Shown one piece after another: positions 28,234-35,552 of a DNA stretch of 64,000 nt. The translations under genes and the position numbers were made by a program. The stretch's first letter is position 1. Each line of letters begins with the position of its first letter. The stretch comes from Candidatus Bathyarchaeia archaeon (GTDB taxonomy: Archaea > Thermoproteota > Bathyarchaeia > 40CM-2-53-6): contig JBEKFP010000002.1 in the NCBI GenBank assembly GCA_050013255.1, forward strand, positions 448,001 to 512,000, given 5' to 3'. The notes below the pieces were generated by a model. The model was not told the DNA's origin. It worked only from the letters and a program-made list of their open reading frames with translations, and ran no database searches.

Positions 28234-28686
28234 TTAGCTTCCTAGAATTCGTCTCAAAGCACCAAGCCGAACCGGTGTTTCCTTTTCTGCAAGTTTCATG
28301 GCCCCCTTGTCAATTTCGAGGGCGAACCATTGCTTTTCGTGGCAGGTTGCGCATTCAACCTCATTGGGGCCGCTTAAGGTTAGGTTTCTGTGCCCGCAGG
28401 CCCGGCAGGCAACTCTCGTAGCTATTCGGACGCGGCCGTTCGGCGTTGGAGATTCTGTGTCGCTAATCGAGCGCAGCGCGCTTACGATTTCAACTGGGGA
28501 GACTGCGCCTGGTTTCCGTCTGATCTCCATGCCAGGGTATTGTCTGACTTCCACGAACTCCCAGCGAACTAGGAAATCGACGGCCCGTTTCAGCGTTCCC
28601 TCATCCAAGCCTGAAGTCTCCTTTAGTGCCTCAGGGGTTTCCCATTCCAGTTCGGGAATCGCTGACCAAACAGTCTCGAGGAACAA
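28234..28686 (-). CDS. wHTH plus Zn-ribbon protein (putative regulator)
   Basis: HTH-like LKETSGLDEGTLKRAVDFL..WEFV; CRAC..CATC. Confidence 0.65.
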   Translation of the reverse strand: MFLETVWSAIPELEWETPEALKETSGLDEGTLKRAVDFLVRWEFVEVRQYPGMEIRRKPGAVSPVEIVSALRSISDTESPTPNGRVRIATRVACRACGHRNLTLSGPNEVECATCHEKQWFALEIDKGAMKLAEKETPVRLGALRRILGS

Positions 28687-28859
28687 TATCTTGCCAACTC
28701 AAACGCGTGTTAACCCGGGAGGGCAGGTAAACCAAGTGTCACCAACGGTCGTCGACCTCAGTCACATACAACGCTATAGAACATTGCACGAAATCTTCTA
28801 TGATGCGATTTGCAACCCAACTCGACTCAAAAGGCCTAAGGGTATGCTCAGTTTTCTAA

Positions 28860-29117
28860 ATGCGCAGATGCGTCTTGGCGCGTACTCGTATGCTGCTCCG
28901 TCCCGTGGCATTGACGATGTTCGTTTTCGGCCTGCTAGTCTGGCTGTACGTTATCACCATACAGATCACGCATCCGGATTGGCTTGCCGAGGAATTTTCT
29001 CACCTCAACCTTCCACCCCTGAACTGGCGGTTAGACGAAGTGGGCATCATAGCCTTCGCAGTCGCCGCGGTCGGCTTCTTCATCTGGCAACTTGAACAAA
29101 ACTCAACTCACAAGTGA
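28860..29117 (+). CDS. Small two-TM membrane protein
   Basis: WLYVITIQITHP motif between two TM helices; start may be ATG 28890. Confidence 0.7.
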   Translation: MRRCVLARTRMLLRPVALTMFVFGLLVWLYVITIQITHPDWLAEEFSHLNLPPLNWRLDEVGIIAFAVAAVGFFIWQLEQNSTHK

Positions 29118-29129
29118 AAATGCCGTTCA

Positions 29130-29157
29130 ACACGAAGTAACATAGTTTGCTGGCCTT
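29130..29157. repeat. Degenerate dif-like site A
   Basis: ACACGAAGTAA CATAGT TTGCTGGCCTT shares AAGTAACATRGTTT with site B. Confidence 0.45.
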
Positions 29158-29461
29158 CTTCTGGACAGTGATATTCCCGGGGTCGAATAGACATATTCAG
29201 TGCAGAGAGAGCGGACATGAGCTTTTTGTTGAGTATCCTAGGCTAATGGTAAGCACGTTGTCTGAACTCGACTAGGAGGACGCTAATTCGTTTCGCTTCC
29301 CAGTCTACTTCATATTCTATGCGAATGTCTCCAATTCGGATTCGATAGAGGTCTTTCAGTCCGCGCAACTTCTTTACGTCGTATTCTGGTACGGGAGCTG
29401 GATTCTGCTTAAGCACCTCGAAGGCAATAACAATCCTCTCAACCTAGTGTTTGGGAATGTG

Positions 29462-29819
29462 GGTTCTGTTAACTTGTCGGCTCATTGCGTTCAGTGACCT
29501 CTCATGCCTAAAGGTGAGAAGTGTGGTAAGCAGTCTCGTCATCAGTTGATGAAAACGGCTCATTAAGCGATATGTGGGTTTCATAACCCGAAAGCTGAGC
29601 GGTTCGATGTTGGGTAATAGGTTGCTTTGACCAAGCGTAAAACCCTGACTAGGCGAAATGGTCTAGCTGGCCTGGTGAATGCTAGGCGAGAGCCGTGAGG
29701 TTCGCGGCCGTCGCGTCTGCAATTGAAGCGATGGTACAGGAATCCGTGACTGACGGTAATCTTGAAAGTCGATGCAGACGAGTTAACTCAAACGCATGTG
29801 CCGAAGAGCTAACAGAACC
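29462..29819. mobile_element. IS6-family-like MITE (358 bp)
   Basis: Terminal IRs GGTTCTGTTAACTTGTCGGCTCAT / ATGTGCCGAAGAGCTAACAGAACC; perfect 8-bp direct repeat GGAATGTG at 29454-29461 and 29820-29827. Confidence 0.88.
29495..29785 (+). ncRNA. Candidate structured RNA inside the MITE
   Basis: At least 8 nested helices, with G-U pairs on the + strand. Confidence 0.5.
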
Positions 29820-29876
29820 GGAATGTGCCTTAGCGACTTTCTTGCACGGTTTGAGATTATCAGCTCAAACTGGGAC

Positions 29877-30080
29877 TTACACGCCTAATTCTTTTCGCAG
29901 TTGAGTGAGCGTTACATAATGGCCCCTCTCAATCTCCCGCCGACTTTTCCTTATTCGCCTTCTTATCGACGGGGTTGGCACCTCTTCGGGCAGGAGTTGG
30001 GCCCGCAGGCGAAGAAGTTCAATTTTCACATCGTCCAATCTCGTAATGACTCTCCGAATCTCCGTTTGCGTGATGGCCAT
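29877..30080 (-). CDS. Antitoxin (RelB-like) of the broken RelE
   Basis: MAITQTE..LLPEEVPT..REIERGHYVTLTQLRKELGV; directly upstream of relE. Confidence 0.85.
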   Translation of the reverse strand: MAITQTEIRRVITRLDDVKIELLRLRAQLLPEEVPTPSIRRRIRKSRREIERGHYVTLTQLRKELGV

Positions 30081-30108
30081 CGGTCTAAGCCCAACATAAC
30101 AGAATACC

Positions 30109-30590
30109 GGTGCGACTAATAATTGCATCTTGGCTCTCGCAAGTTGAAGGACTCAAAGGCAGCAATCATCAAGGCTTTTACGAGTTACAGAAACACGCCG
30201 AGATTGTTGATGACAAGAAACGCAACCTTCAACGCGCACCAAGAATAGTTGCTCAATAACCCGCTAACACGACAGGGCGTCCATTTATGAGGCGTACCTG
30301 ACGTCGGGGGTTTACCACATTGTACGCGGTAAAGGCAGTTACCGCGGCCCCATAAACCCCCAAGGCGGTGAGTGAAACTAACGGAATCAAGGTTAGCTGA
30401 TCAAACGAACCATACAGGAATGACTCGAGGCTCGCAAGAAACCCTAGCCATGAGTCAAATCATTGAACCCTGCTGGGCTCGTCTTACGAGCTAGCCTAAA
30501 GTGAAACCCCCCAGACTAAGGGTCACCGCGCGATTATGCCCCCCTGAGCAGCCCGGGTTCCACAAAGCCAGACCGGAGCAACAACCAGTT
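30109..30590 (+). ncRNA. Candidate large structured non-coding element
   Basis: Nested helices, e.g. GTTGCTC/GAGCAAC, GGGGGTTTA/TAAACCCCC, GCGGTGA/TCACCGC; no credible ORF. Confidence 0.5.
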
Positions 30591-30628
30591 AAGCAGGACC
30601 AGTGTAATATTCTGAGGAGTGTATCTGG

Positions 30629-30832
30629 ATGAAGGGGCGACGGTTGTTTGTGGCCATCGACTTCTCAAAGTATAGAGGCAGATATGTCGCCCTAGTTAGA
30701 AGAGAGATTGTTGCTAGTGGTAGGGACGCGGAAAAAGTTTGGTTGGAAGCCAAGAAGAAATATCCGCAGGCCCAACCTGAATTACTTAAAGTTTCGAAAG
30801 GCGAAACGCTCGTGCTTATCGTATGCGGATAA
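30629..30832 (+). CDS. DUF5678-like small protein
   Basis: KYRGRYVALV..EIVASG.D..V..EAKKKYP. Confidence 0.8.
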   Translation: MKGRRLFVAIDFSKYRGRYVALVRREIVASGRDAEKVWLEAKKKYPQAQPELLKVSKGETLVLIVCG

Positions 30833-31221
30833 GCTTCCCTTACTTGAAAGAACAGTCGCGCATTTTCGGAGTAGTCACCCGCCCCATCGCGAGAGTGATC
30901 CTACAGCGAAAGTATCCGCAATGGATGTATGTCGACTCGGGGGCAGATATCTCACTGATCCCTCTGTCTGTTGGCCGACTGATTGGGCTGACTCGAACAA
31001 GAGAAGACAGGCTCCAGAGAATATTCGGAGTCAGTCAATCTTCCGTTTCAATAATCGTGAAGAAGGTATCAATGCGTATTGGGTCGTCAGAATTCAACGC
31101 TAGAGTCGCTTGGAGCCAGGTCGAAGAGGTCCCTCTGCTTCTGGGCAGAATGGACGTGTTTCCCAGATTCAGTGTGATATTCAAAGAAAGAAATCAATTA
31201 ACCACCTTTTCAACGAGCTAG
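30823..31221 (+). CDS. Retropepsin-like (clan AA) aspartyl protease
   Basis: VDSGADIS and LLGRMDVF. Confidence 0.85.
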   Translation: MRISFPYLKEQSRIFGVVTRPIARVILQRKYPQWMYVDSGADISLIPLSVGRLIGLTRTREDRLQRIFGVSQSSVSIIVKKVSMRIGSSEFNARVAWSQVEEVPLLLGRMDVFPRFSVIFKERNQLTTFSTS

Positions 31222-31227
31222 ACCCAG

Positions 31228-31476
31228 TCAGTGCGAATCCCTCATCTTGTCTAGGAGGCGTTTCATCTCCCCAGGGCTGGAGCACTCGGATCCGCTACCG
31301 GCTAAGTCGACTGTGCTTGGTTTGGGTTTCAGGAGTATGCCTGAACCTGAGTTGATTACTTCCAGTCGCGTACCCTCCCTGACCAAATACTTCTTCCTCA
31401 CTCTGACGGGGATAGTTACTCGTCCCTTTCTGGTAACGAGTACTTCTTCGTTGGTTCTGTTAACTTGTCGGCGCAT
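31228..31476 (-). CDS. AbrB/MazE/SpoVT antitoxin (orphan), N-terminus derived from an IS end
   Basis: VTRKGRVTIPVRVRKKY..EGTRL..DLAGS. Confidence 0.85.
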   Translation of the reverse strand: MRRQVNRTNEEVLVTRKGRVTIPVRVRKKYLVREGTRLEVINSGSGILLKPKPSTVDLAGSGSECSSPGEMKRLLDKMRDSH

Positions 31477-31501
31477 GTTGACTCACCGGTTTCGTTAACT
31501 C
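31453..31501. mobile_element. 49-bp remnant of the same IS6-like element
   Basis: GGTTCTGTTAACTTGTCGGC identical to the MITE left end; 8-bp repeat TCTTCGTT at 31445-31452 and 31502-31509. Confidence 0.8.
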
Positions 31502-31559
31502 TCTTCGTTCATGGCACAAGGCACTACCAATGGAAGGGCAGTACATAGGGGGTTGCGGG

Positions 31560-31591
31560 GCGATAAGTAACATGGTTTACTTCAAAACAGG
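31560..31591. repeat. dif-like recombination site B
   Basis: GCGATAAGTAA CATGGT TTACTTCAAAA CAGG; AAGTAA-N6-TTACTT dyad. Confidence 0.7.
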
Positions 31592-31730
31592 GGAGGCCGC
31601 CATCGTACGCAGCAACTGCAGTTAGAAGTTAACCGTCCCGTGTTGGTCCTCCCCCTGAAATTTTCGAAACTGCGAGCGCTAGAATGTACGCATCATTCTC
31701 GATAGGTACAGTCTAAATTTGCATGCACCA

Positions 31731-31983
31731 TCATTCATAGACAGCTCGCCTGTGGCCCACGGTGAGCAGAATCACCTTGTCGTCTGAAACTAAGTAAATT
31801 ACACGGTAACGGCCGATCCTGAGGGAATACTTTCCTTCCCATTGGCCCCTGAGAAGTTTTCCCGCGTGCGGATTTTCCTCAAGCACATGTACTTCGGAGA
31901 ATTCTGATTTGTGTTTGTCGATCTAGGTCTTTGAGTCTACGCCCGAAGCGTGGAGCGAACTCAAGCCTGAACTTGGCCTTCAA
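31731..31983 (-). pseudogene. RelE/ParE toxin with frameshift
   Basis: MKAKFRLEFAPRFGRRLKDLDRQTQIRILR / EVHVLEENPHAGKLLRG..YSLRIGRYRVIY..VGHRRAVYE; 253 nt, consistent with a 2-nt deletion. Confidence 0.9.
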
Positions 31984-32170
31984 GACCAAGCTCCTTTACA
32001 AGTTCTAAGAAGGGCCTCGTTCTTCCTTCCTTCACTTCAGTGAGCGCGTCTTCGATGTCTCGCACCAGTTCTTTATCGCCGCTAACTTCCATGGTTTCGA
32101 CGAGTTCCTCCATCAGCCTACTAGCCTTCATGAGGAGCTCCTTTTCTTCAATCGTTAGTAAGCTAGTCAT
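31961..32170 (-). CDS. Antitoxin (RelB-like)
   Basis: Acidic; ELVETMEV..DKELVRDIEDAL.EVKEGRTRPF; overlaps the relE start. Confidence 0.85.
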   Translation of the reverse strand: MTSLLTIEEKELLMKASRLMEELVETMEVSGDKELVRDIEDALTEVKEGRTRPFLELVKELGLEGQVQA

Positions 32171-32408
32171 GGCAGGCTACCTAATACTACCCTGTGCGCC
32201 CAGCTACATATTCATTCTCCATGCCGCCAACGCAGTTCGGGACATCACGCTACTCTCAGAGGAAGAATTGGAATTCTCGATAGGTTACAGTTGCACGCAC
32301 CACATGCAGTTCTTCGTCTTCGTGCCGTCGGCCGCTTCAACTTCGGCGAGGGAATAGTGGCAGTAGGGACAATAATCCAAGTTGCAGGGCCTCGTGCCTA
32401 GTTGGCTA

Positions 32409-32440
32409 GCGATGAGTAACATGGTTTACTTCAAAACAGG
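32409..32440. repeat. dif-like recombination site C
   Basis: GCGATGAGTAA CATGGT TTACTTCAAAA CAGG; 31/32 identical to site B. Confidence 0.7.
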
Positions 32441-32465
32441 CGACCCCTCCCTCAACCGCTGTCGG

Positions 32466-32759
32466 GCGCAGAACAGTTACCGGTTAACCAACTCGAATAG
32501 TCCGCACCATAATCCACACTACCAAAAAAACAGCAAAACAGGCCCGGTCTGACTCAGAAAACTGAGTCACCCCCCCCTGGGGGGTCCTCCAAGCGTGCGC
32601 ACGCAGGCCGCGGGGGATGCCTAGCCTATGTTATACAGCCCCAACTAGGTGCTTCCACGTGGCTGGGTAGGTTCCCCCACCTTCAGTGGCTTGCGCGAAT
32701 CGCGCAGAACAGTTACCGATTAACTCGACAACCTATCCTACCGAATGCGTGTGGTAGTG
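32466..32759 (+). other. Structured non-coding element with 23-bp direct repeats
   Basis: GCGCAGAACAGTTACCGRTTAAC at 32466 and 32702; several hairpins between them. Confidence 0.5.
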
Positions 32760-32783
32760 CAGGAAACTAAAGCAGCTACGGGC

Positions 32784-33071
32784 CTAAGTTTTCTTTTTTC
32801 TGCTTCGGCTTGGCTTTTTCGCCGGAGTGTTCGAACTCACGGGTTCTGTGTCTAGCGGCGCCGGCGGGGGCGTTGTAAGCATCGTCCAACCAATCCAAGC
32901 TGAGATCACGAGAACGAGGAGGACGAAGAGTAGGACGGGTATCCCAATCGCCCAATCATGCCAGTAAGCTGGAAGCCCTACGAACGGGGCGAAGAACGCA
33001 AGAAGATACACGATCGCGACGATAAGCGATACTATGAAAATTGCGAAGCCGTAACCTTGATCCTTACTCAT
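32784..33071 (-). CDS. Conserved archaeal two-TM protein
   Basis: MSKDQ..G, WIGWTMLTTPPPAP motif, basic tail. Confidence 0.85.
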   Translation of the reverse strand: MSKDQGYGFAIFIVSLIVAIVYLLAFFAPFVGLPAYWHDWAIGIPVLLFVLLVLVISAWIGWTMLTTPPPAPLDTEPVSSNTPAKKPSRSRKKKT

Positions 33072-33180
33072 GGAGGTTCAAGCTCGAACCGGAATTAACT
33101 TCGGTCACAATATAAGCTTTAACAAAGCTGCCTTCAAGATATTTAAATCCTGAACGACAAACTACGTAACAGAGTAGGGT

Positions 33181-33453
33181 ATGACTAGCGTAACTGAATT
33201 GCAGCATAGAATCCAGAAGACGCGACAGTACCTACATAGGCTGGAGACTGAACTACATCGAGTCGAGTATCCATCGCCAACAAGAAGAGAGTCGGAAGAG
33301 CAGAGGACTAGAAGATTGGAAACCGAGTTCAACCGTGAGTATCCTAACATGGTAATTGAGAGGAGCGTACTCAAGCTCGTTGGTAGCCTTCCGAATCGTG
33401 GAAGCGATAGCAAACTAATAGCCCAAGCAATTGTCGAAAAATATGCAAAATGA
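33181..33453 (+). CDS. Putative antitoxin (VapB-like)
   Basis: Coiled N-terminus, LKLVGSLP..DSKLIAQAIVEKY; overlaps a PIN remnant. Confidence 0.65.
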   Translation: MTSVTELQHRIQKTRQYLHRLETELHRVEYPSPTRRESEEQRTRRLETEFNREYPNMVIERSVLKLVGSLPNRGSDSKLIAQAIVEKYAK

Positions 33454-33600
33454 ACCGCCCTTTGTAGACGCAAACATCTTCCTAGATGTCGCGAGAAGGC
33501 GGAAAGGTCACAAAGAGAATCAGGAAGACCACAGATGACGAGATGTTGAAGAGAGTTGAAAGAGTTGAAATTTGTTCCCCTTGCGAGGCTGATGCTCTTC
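33443..33600 (+). pseudogene. PIN/VapC toxin with internal deletion
   Basis: MQNEPPFVDANIFLDVARRR then, in another frame, TTDDEMLKRVERVEICSP. Confidence 0.65.
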
Positions 33601-33622
33601 CAACAAGCACACAGCTGGGAAC

Positions 33623-35470
33623 TCAAGTTAATTGCTTGTAGCCGGGTCTCTGGCTGATTAGGGTTGGGAGCTTCTGCGACATAACCGGATAACCCGCACT
33701 GTGACCGACTATTTCGTTCACCAATTCCGGAAGCCCAACGTTGTACCGTTTCCCGTCCGTCCTCCGCCGAACCGCGAGCATTTGCGTCTCAACTTCACGC
33801 TTACCCACAACCGCAACGTAAGGTATCCAGTTAAGCTCAGCATCCCGCACACGCCTGTCCAAGCTTTCATCTCGGTCATCAATGTCGGCTCTAACATGTG
33901 AAGCGGCCAATTGGTCGGCGAGTTTCTGGGCATGCTCCAGGAACTCAGGCTTGACGGGGATCAGTCGAATCTGGGAAGGCGACAGCCACAGCGGTAGGCT
34001 TGGTTTCCCTCCCAGTTTCTCCGTTCTCGCACACTGGTCTAGCACCGTGAAAAGGTAACGTTCAACCGAGCCGATGACGGCCGTGTGGATTATTGGCGGA
34101 AACTGTTTCGCACCTTTCTCATCGACGTACGAGATGGCGAAACGTTTCGCGTTCCCCATATCGATTTGAAACGTTGCGATCTCCCTCGGCCTTTCAAGCT
34201 CGTCAATTATGTGGTACTCTATGTTGAGAACCCAGTAGTAGATACCCTCAGGGACAAAGTTGAGCAGCGCCGGCTTCCCCTCCCGCTTCACAAGTTTCAT
34301 CACGTAATCTTTGTGTGAGTCCAGGAAGCTCTGAGTGATGTTATACACTGAAACATAATCCCTGCCGAGTTTCCCAATTTCCTCGTAAATTTTATCATGT
34401 AATTTGAGGGTGACCTCCTTCGCATCTTCGAGGTTTCTGCAGTAGATGTGGCAGTCGGGCATGTGCAATTTCCTTAACCTAAACGAAAGCAGAAGCTCAC
34501 CGCTCTGCTCCAGGCGGTATGAGTCAGCCACTTCGAAAGTCCCGAAGGGCAAGTGCCTGTAGCTCAAGGTCCAATTCCTCACGGCTGCAAACTGCTGGTG
34601 GCAGGCGGCGTATCTCATCACGAAACTCTTGTTCTCCACCTCAAGCCGGTAAAGCCTCGAACCGAAGAGGTCTGCGTGTTCCTTCACGGCTGGGACGGCT
34701 AGGTCGAACATGTTCGTGCCCTTTACCTGCAGGATCGGTAATCCAACCGAGCTCAATACACTCCACGAATATTCGCTGATGAGGTCAAAGATCATTACAC
34801 CCTCAGGGTTGTAACGCATGTGGCCTACGTCGGAGAAGTTCTCCCATTCGATTCCAAACTTCTTGCAGTATTCGAGGTAACGCGGTTCCCCTCCCGGCAA
34901 CGCCTTCTTGAGGGCCTCCTTCTCTACGAGGATGCGGAACTCCTCTTCGCCAGGCTTGAACACGTACTCCTCGGGGTCGTAGAGTTTTCCGTCCAGTGCC
35001 AGAACCTTATAGTAAGTCTTGATCGGTGCAGGTTCCGCCTTTGCCTGCTCAGGCCTAATTGTTCTGGATAATTCGGAGAGCGGATGGCCAAGGCAGTGAA
35101 GGCTAAAACTCTTGTAGTATCCGAACGGACTACGGTGTACTTCGAAACTCATCTCGCTCAGAAATCTGCTTAACTGCTCAAGAACAGAAATCGCAACGGC
35201 CGCGGAAGCAAGACTGCTTGAGAGGTGCGCGTAAGGGTATACCAGTATACGGTTCGCGTTTACGGACCTTGCAACCTCAGCGATGGATTCAGTAGCCTTC
35301 CTGACAACTTCACCGGGATTCTGTTCATCCTCCTTCTCAATAGTCGAAAAGGCCACAAGCACATTCTCAAACTTACCAGCTCGGTTGTCCTGTAGGGGTT
35401 CCGGGTTCTTGACAGCCGTCTGGCGGACCTCGTACTCGAACGATTCGCAATGAAGTAATAGAAGCCTCAA
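33623..35470 (-). CDS. thrS: Threonine--tRNA ligase, archaeal type
   Basis: N-terminal editing domain YPYAHLSS..HPLSELSR; RYAAC, IIHTA..GSVER, anticodon-binding domain. Confidence 0.97.
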   Translation of the reverse strand: MRLLLLHCESFEYEVRQTAVKNPEPLQDNRAGKFENVLVAFSTIEKEDEQNPGEVVRKATESIAEVARSVNANRILVYPYAHLSSSLASAAVAISVLEQLSRFLSEMSFEVHRSPFGYYKSFSLHCLGHPLSELSRTIRPEQAKAEPAPIKTYYKVLALDGKLYDPEEYVFKPGEEEFRILVEKEALKKALPGGEPRYLEYCKKFGIEWENFSDVGHMRYNPEGVMIFDLISEYSWSVLSSVGLPILQVKGTNMFDLAVPAVKEHADLFGSRLYRLEVENKSFVMRYAACHQQFAAVRNWTLSYRHLPFGTFEVADSYRLEQSGELLLSFRLRKLHMPDCHIYCRNLEDAKEVTLKLHDKIYEEIGKLGRDYVSVYNITQSFLDSHKDYVMKLVKREGKPALLNFVPEGIYYWVLNIEYHIIDELERPREIATFQIDMGNAKRFAISYVDEKGAKQFPPIIHTAVIGSVERYLFTVLDQCARTEKLGGKPSLPLWLSPSQIRLIPVKPEFLEHAQKLADQLAASHVRADIDDRDESLDRRVRDAELNWIPYVAVVGKREVETQMLAVRRRTDGKRYNVGLPELVNEIVGHSAGYPVMSQKLPTLISQRPGYKQLT

Positions 35471-35552
35471 AGAATCCAACACTCATAGTGGCATGTGGGA
35501 ACTGCAGGAGATTAACATAGGTTGAACATCTCTTTTCTGGAACGCAGCTTCA

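Follow-up and report, generated by a model that had tools for sequence, protein, structure and literature searches.

Cassette arrays are known from bacterial integrons, from the dif modules of Acinetobacter and, since 2022, from archaeal integrons. Dif modules have sites of alternating (inverted) polarity, are mostly plasmid-borne and use the host recombinases XerC and XerD, and in Streptococcus thermophilus (ICESt1/CIME) integrase-less cis-mobilisable elements (CIMEs) accrete in tandem at one attachment (att) site. In the archaeal XerA/dif system, as described by Cortez et al. (2010, PMC2958812), there is one dif site on each chromosome; it is conserved within a genus and accompanied by a conserved xerA gene. 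Ghaly et al. (2022, PMC9668308) report that most archaeal integrons are clusters of attC sites lacking integron integrases (CALINs) and that, among annotated cassette functions, toxin-antitoxin (TA) proteins are the commonest. Here we analyse an island beside thrS in a Candidatus Bathyarchaeia archaeon from peat, a member of an uncultured clade about whose mobile elements little is known; small operons are enclosed there by copies of a short site, following the logic of such arrays with a different kind of site. The window is a stretch of 64,000 nt (G000:C2:448001-512000; GenBank assembly GCA_050013255.1, contig JBEKFP010000002.1) of genome G000, which comprises 2.46 Mb in three contigs (C1 to C3) at 50% GC; positions without a contig are those of the window.

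The island lies between two genes for membrane proteins of 85 and 95 aa, the latter beside thrS, and consists of three direct copies of the site, A, B and C, with cargo between A and B and between B and C (Table 1). Sites B (31560-31591) and C (32409-32440) are identical at 31 of 32 nt and spaced 849 bp apart, as reported in the original prediction, which had been made from this DNA alone; repeat comparison and shuffling confirmed the pair, the 28-mer of the site matching B and C alone in the window with 0 matches expected from 100 shuffles, and the likeness reaches 45 nt at 87% identity. A degenerate third copy that had been placed at the left edge of the island proved real but partial: site A (29135-29151) begins 18 nt past the stop of the 85-aa gene, matches the core exactly over 16-17 nt (16 nt of the family core, stopping after TTTGCT), and is a weak match to our site model, covering model positions 18-46. 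The inward-facing TAA/TTA ends predicted around a 6-nt spacer are present, and in site B they form a perfect 6-6-6 arrangement (AAGTAA-CATGGT-TTACTT).

Six copies of the family core, RGTAACATRGTTTRCT, occur in the genome, namely A, B, C and three solitary ones. The core consensus is an imperfect 8-6-8 inverted repeat, ATGAGTAA-CATAGT-TTGCTCCT, in which 6 of the 8 arm positions are complementary, and it is embedded in a conserved unit of 45-65 nt made up of an optional, cassette-type left arm (TTCTCCACC..GGGATGA), the core with its 6-nt spacer, and a right arm. The right arms are of at least three types, all of which diverge right after GTAACAT, i.e., within the spacer. Folding of eight 96-nt site stretches as single-stranded DNA gave z-scores of -1.22 to +1.02, with only a local stem of 6 bp, and no tRNA or Rfam matches were found in the window or at six site loci.

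A sequence model built from 15 copies recovered 3-4 copies in each of four related genomes (G004, G014, G018 and G021), in both orientations and mostly at non-syntenic places, and no convincing match in the remaining 54 genomes of the family; when 185,579 species genomes were scanned for the exact pattern, matches came from the same four closest relatives alone, which are Candidatus Bathyarchaeia/Bathyarchaeota metagenome-assembled genomes from peat and related sites. The search in relatives that the original prediction had called for found a motif shared with four sister species. The family is confined to a subclade of five species within a single Bathyarchaeia genus. A scan of peat metagenomes added about 25 further copies, several of them in tandem. 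Viral contigs gave 15 exact core matches, of which the best two lie inside an open reading frame (ORF) of a phage contig of 40% GC and the remaining 13 show little likeness past the searched core, as expected by chance. Across these genomes the copies fall where conserved chromosome meets variable islands, as well as at synteny breakpoints.

At the thrS locus itself, G018 and G021 have exactly one site copy between the 85-aa gene and the 95-aa gene with thrS, in gaps of 369 and 325 bp, respectively, and no cargo. The same flanks are 3.7 kb apart in the window, and the left flank of site A and the right arm of site C resemble those of the single copy, with the right arm of C running on into the chromosomal flank that the relatives have on that side. 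The contrast between a one-copy gap and 3.7 kb with matching outer flanks indicates that the island is an insertion at a pre-existing site that was duplicated in the process. A single syntenic copy near thrS was what the original prediction had named beforehand as support, and both relatives have it.

The same architecture recurs elsewhere. Near 86 kb of contig C2 in G018, three direct site copies delimit two units, one of 829 bp with hicAB and one of 1412 bp with vapBC; the left arm of every internal site is of the cassette type and is followed by a new right arm, the last site has the chromosomal right arm, and the equivalent locus in other strains and species (G021:C21, L091 and L101) has a single copy. 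Peat contig L113 carries a 785-bp unit between two site copies whose one gene, E1, has no known function and is found in G004:C28 between the site and a tyrosine integrase. Most cassette genes in the window, G018 and L113 arrays are encoded on the strand opposite that of the site. Cargo also appears in different contexts: the window's pair of genes for a DUF5678 protein and an aspartyl-protease-like protein has ~94-95% identical counterparts in G004:C46 and peat contig L108, the flanks of which are just 81-85% identical, and in L108 the pair stands directly left of a site copy whose right side is a different chromosomal region. Relative to this genome (C2:632885-632906), G018 has a 23.5-kb insertion (G018:C2:243201-266771) that holds a full copy of the site at 249.4 kb, together with a segment resembling C3:177754-183656 of this genome.

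A genome-wide search for tyrosine recombinases returned three, at C2:259100-259951, C3:28509-29357 and C3:131226-132083, none of them in the window; this does not contradict the statement in the original prediction that the window encodes no integrase, ORFs of the window itself having been scanned from ~28.9 to 32.4 kb. All three share 35-52% identity with integrases from a terminase-bearing element of G014, and two adjoin tRNA genes (G000:C2:259100-260000, at a tRNA-Arg at C2:260000; G000:C3:28267-29357, at an unassigned tRNA at C3:28267), an integrase beside a tRNA gene being the usual signature of integrated elements. One resident recombinase compared with Pyrococcus abyssi XerA matched it at E = 2.6e-6. 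Under the XerA equivalog model (NCBIfam NF040815, cut-off 220 bits), which four archaeal control genomes all exceed, none of the five motif-bearing genomes has an equivalog: the best scores were 78 bits in this genome, 78.7 in G004, 92 in G014, 111 in G021 and 23.6 in G018, and the site-adjacent and resident integrases that were scored reached 38-78 bits. Genus-wide, XerA-like proteins of 302-342 aa with full-length matches of 150-212 bits occur in G002, G003, G008, G009, G010 and G011, all of which lack the motif, and in none of the five site-bearing species.

Two relatives place integrases near the site. In G004:C28 a copy lies ~0.9 kb from a tyrosine integrase (PF16795, PF00589) at the edge of an 18-kb type I restriction-modification island, the integrase gene corresponding to L067:8723-9520, and in G014:C16 a copy interrupted by a 79-bp insert, whose overlap is ACAT, lies beside an element with two integrases (~5.5 kb from the site) and a terminase. 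A search of 27 metagenome loci found no integrase.

One explanation for these results, and the one that we favour with modest confidence, is that the repeats are att-type, double-stranded sites of a family of cassettes or mobile elements that is moved in trans by a recombinase encoded outside the island. Unoccupied site copies exist at several intergenic places, one of them between the 85-aa gene and thrS, and in this genome circular or element-borne cargo with its own site copy would probably have inserted there, one piece after another. Each insertion would be a conservative site-specific recombination between the chromosomal copy and the circle-borne copy, with a crossover that we infer to lie within the CATRGT spacer; repeated insertion would produce the order A-cargo-B-cargo-C, in which the left site A is a hybrid, B is internal and the right site C retains the chromosomal right arm. 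The enzyme is encoded neither in the island nor by a host xerA gene and would most likely act in trans from a mobile element; the strongest candidate is a tyrosine recombinase of such an element, since one lies 0.9 kb from the G004 site junction and others lie near the split G014 site. With such an enzyme and stacked, site-borne cargo, the array would be analogous to a CALIN, to dif modules or to a tandem accretion of integrase-less elements.

Several observations weigh against this explanation. No recombination product was observed; contigs of four peat runs compared with 28600-33300 contain no joint that skips the 849-bp unit or the island, and long peat contigs span B and C without differences, a null result that says nothing either way because contigs cannot show rare forms. 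The match of site A stops inside the right arm rather than at the spacer. No recombinase is linked to the site within the window, G018 has four site copies and no tyrosine recombinase at the Pfam level (its sole recombinase-like match, a weak one, is an ORF of 369 aa that closes the 23.5-kb insertion on the right), the far (right) end of the integrase island in G004 has no site copy, and no integrase-bearing element ending in site copies on both sides was found. Some inter-site units are gene-less and span 36-220 nt, which is odd for a cassette system, and the DUF5678/protease pair of the window is on the other strand from the rest of the cargo. Finally, strain L106 (Ga0208321_1000011), which is 97.8% identical, has no site B: 555 bp including the site are replaced by 295 bp, such that, in the equivalent of 31270-31826, abrB, site B and the 3' end of the relE gene have given way to a hicB-like gene of 68 aa. 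The breakpoints of this replacement lie away from the site, and illegitimate recombination therefore also shapes the island.

The array in the window is now eroding: both toxins are broken, a miniature inverted-repeat transposable element (MITE) has inserted, site A is truncated and the sister strain lacks site B. The relBE pair that the original prediction had seen between B and C survives in part, since relB is present and relE is frameshifted, so that the pair is not intact; the Pfam ParE_toxin match of this toxin spans profile positions 38-89 only. In L106 the N-terminal frame of relE is intact where this genome is frameshifted, and the C-terminus is truncated. A joint of the L106 type is also present in one peat run (31270 to 31835).

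The alternative that survives best, which we nevertheless regard as unlikely, is that the sites are attL/attR scars of larger integrase-bearing elements, proviruses or integrative plasmids, that integrated in tandem and then decayed, the TA units being leftovers and not mobile cassettes. Integrase-bearing islands do abut site copies in G004 and G014, TA genes are typical stabilisers of mobile elements, the island is visibly decaying and has been remodelled by recombination away from the site, and E1 is a lone cassette in L113 yet stands beside an integrase in G004. Three separate arrays have units of ~0.8-1.4 kb with one operon each, however, and the near-identity of B and C (31 of 32 nt) argues for recent, site-precise events over long decay.

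An improbable alternative holds that the site binds a protein in a regulatory or structural role, for example as a promoter, an operator or a nucleoid-protein site, and that regulatory DNA has merely been duplicated. Sites C and B are indeed just upstream of minus-strand operons, the second site of the G018 array is upstream of hicBA, and the reverse strand of the core starts with the ATG that begins a zinc-ribbon ORF at site C. An operator would not be shared by antitoxin families as unrelated as RelB, AbrB and HicB, however; two of four solitary copies in this genome face the 3' end of a convergent gene, and the copies coincide with island borders and synteny breaks. Nor do the copies stand consistently upstream of co-oriented genes. 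A promoter was considered separately and rejected, as the TTATAC-type box that accompanies many copies, 65-200 nt to their right, is directed away from the cassettes.

Less probable still is the interpretation advanced in the original prediction, that the copy near thrS is the chromosomal dif site and that host XerA stacked cassettes there, in the manner of integrative mobile elements exploiting Xer (IMEX) or of dif modules. Its general premise of a recombination-type site stands, in that cargo is inserted at the site and the inverted repeat with a 6-nt spacer is that of tyrosine-recombinase sites; chromosomal dif and host XerA do not. In favour of a dif site are the dif-like geometry, the single syntenic copy in two relatives and a cumulative GC skew with a broad local maximum at 28-42 kb of the window and a fall thereafter, a weak signal in a three-contig assembly; the skew profile of C2, equally weak, is flat to ~490 kb and then falls steadily. 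The skew maximum is the only point that favours a terminus, and it may mark a replication-related switch near the island. Against these stand copy numbers of six here and 3-4 in each relative, in both orientations, the position of the C1 copies at no skew switch, and a conserved unit of 45-65 nt with asymmetric arms in place of a 28-bp dif. The five motif-bearing genomes have no XerA equivalog at the curated score, the XerA-like proteins of the genus are confined to six motif-less species, and the resident integrases are all mobile-element-like, two of the three being tRNA-adjacent. A tempting mis-annotation is thereby corrected, since resemblance to dif in shape is not enough to identify a dif site.

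Least probable of all are transposon-type units, either casposons or IS200/IS605-like elements with a passenger gene, of which the repeat would be a target duplication or an end hairpin: this genome has two casposase-like cas1 genes and a tnpB gene lies 0.5 kb from the site in L113, but the B-C unit is without terminal inverted repeats, the repeat measures 32-45 nt against the 14-15 bp of a casposon duplication, G018 and G021 carry sites yet no cas1, the Y1 transposase (PF01797) has no match in any of the five site-bearing genomes, six control genomes being positive, and single-stranded site DNA folds no better than shuffled sequence. An origin-recognition box was also considered and rejected, the copies being solitary and the Cdc6 genes lying elsewhere (C1:694k and C3:196k).

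Table 1 Features of the thrS-linked island, its chromosomal flanks and the solitary site copies. Coordinates are window positions unless a contig of genome G000 is given.
Feature	Position	Strand	Description
Left chromosomal flank: 85-aa membrane-protein gene	28860..29117	+	Syntenic in G018, G021, G004 and L108
Site A	29135..29151	+	Partial: degenerate left flank, core GTAACAT, initial 9 nt of the usual right arm; marks where the inserted island begins on the left
Composite A-B cargo	29152..31559		Several pieces, decayed
relE/parE fragment	29243-29416	-	A-B cargo; cut by MITE
MITE, 374 bp	29454-29827		A-B cargo; interrupts the first relE
83-aa ORF	29877-30128	-	A-B cargo; no Pfam match
ORF-free stretch	30.1-30.6 kb		A-B cargo
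DUF5678 + aspartyl-protease-like pair	30629-31221	+	A-B cargo; Pfam
AbrB/MazE-type antitoxin	31228-31476	-	A-B cargo; Pfam
Site B	31560..31604	+	Complete internal copy: left arm ending GCGATAA, core + spacer, right arm; model E = 4e-10
Cassette 2	31592..32408	-	817 bp between B and C; zinc-ribbon ORF, relB-like antitoxin, broken relE/parE-like toxin
relE/parE-like toxin	31731-31886 + upstream piece	-	Cassette 2; frameshift seen in three-frame translation
relB-like antitoxin	31961-32170	-	Cassette 2
Zinc-ribbon ORF, 45 aa	32285-32422	-	Cassette 2; starts inside site C, its ATG being the CAT of the site core
Site C	32409..32453	+	Complete right-hand copy; model E = 9e-14
Separate small multicopy element, ~213 bp	32466..32724	+	Between 23-bp direct repeats (repeat family D4)
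Right chromosomal flank: 95-aa membrane-protein gene + thrS	32784..35482	-	Syntenic in G018 and G021
Solitary site copy	C1:142193	+	Core match
Solitary site copy	C1:426064	+	Core match
Solitary site copy	C2:90435	-	Core match

Other features of the island and its surroundings deserve mention in their own right. In site copies with a left arm of the cassette type, that conserved arm encodes MLL(I/V)P(N/S)xGG(E/D) on the reverse strand, on which the core begins with ATG, some of the changes between copies being synonymous; the zinc-ribbon ORF that opens at site C is kept in strain L106 with two substitutions. The ends and interior of the MITE match DNA adjoining both tnpB genes of the genome (G000:C1:854014-855285 and G000:C2:63297-63427), its right part matching a stretch just 3' of the tnpB zinc-ribbon region, and on the strength of these matches a TnpB guide (omega) RNA scaffold may account for its structured RNA cargo. 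A MITE-less allele is present in contigs of two peat runs, with a joint of 29453 to 29820 and an 8-nt overlap. The small multicopy element in the flank right of site C is GC-rich, hairpin-dense and unrelated to the site family; its depth is 5-10x that of its neighbours in peat contigs, and five partial copies lie elsewhere in the genome. A dispersed repeat of ~125 nt, with at least nine copies in the genome, is often near the site, 50-200 nt left of many copies (for example in G004:C45, L113:13351-13400 and G000:C1:1228435-1228660); it consists of a GGGTGGATCCACCC palindrome followed by two or three direct repeats like GGTGCCAAAC, and could represent arm-type binding sites or an independent small element.

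A bolder proposition, which we put forward tentatively as a possibility, is that this XerA-less subclade of Bathyarchaeia runs a previously undescribed cassette-capture system. Such a system may combine a sequence-defined, double-stranded 8-6-8 site with arms, scattered over several chromosomal loci, with site-bearing circular mini-cassettes (mostly TA operons, some gene-less) and a trans-acting recombinase. If so, recombination between dispersed copies would also reshuffle the chromosome, and the system would be a functional parallel to integrons and dif modules built from different parts. The recombinase, if found, would represent a third independent solution to modular gene capture and would give a handle on the exchange of defence and addiction genes among Bathyarchaeia.

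Compared with the described systems, the locus shares and lacks features of each. Like archaeal dif, the site lies in non-coding DNA and forms an imperfect inverted repeat around a 6-bp spacer, but neither a single-copy site nor a conserved xerA holds here. Accretion of integrative and conjugative elements (ICEs) and CIMEs is resembled by the three or more direct att copies (at least three), the integrase-less units between them, the empty attB in relatives and the expected mobilisation in trans; in contrast, the units here are 0.8-2.4 kb long, the site is multicopy and lies in neither a tRNA nor a protein gene, and the link to an integrase is one neighbouring case in another species. With the plasmid dif (pdif) modules of Acinetobacter and with IMEX the locus has in common small accessory or TA modules without a recombinase gene and short sites of inverted arms around a 6-nt spacer, but here the sites are in direct orientation (A, B and C, as well as the three G018 sites), on chromosomal contigs, in a unit of 45-65 nt and without an Xer equivalog. 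The site system has neither the attC sites that define integrons nor the Xer recombinases and alternating polarity that define dif modules, no IntI is present among the integrases scored, and the genome-wide search placed no integrase of the kind that defines integrative elements in the window. The scan for IntI (TIGR02249, cut-off 265 bits), which covered the integrase at C2:259k and three integrases of relatives ~0.9-6 kb from a site copy, gave 27-38 bits. Integron arrays differ further in that their attC sites are hairpins defined by structure (R''/R' and L''/L' boxes), whereas the core here is double-stranded and conserved in sequence, with arms; single sites are also present here at several loci, with no attI/Pc platform seen. 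Even so, the functionally closest known system appears to be the integrase-less integron array, or CALIN, with which the window, the 86-kb locus of G018 and L113 share co-oriented sites that separate small, mostly one-operon units, for the most part facing the same way, with no adjacent integrase, and TA systems as the commonest cargo.

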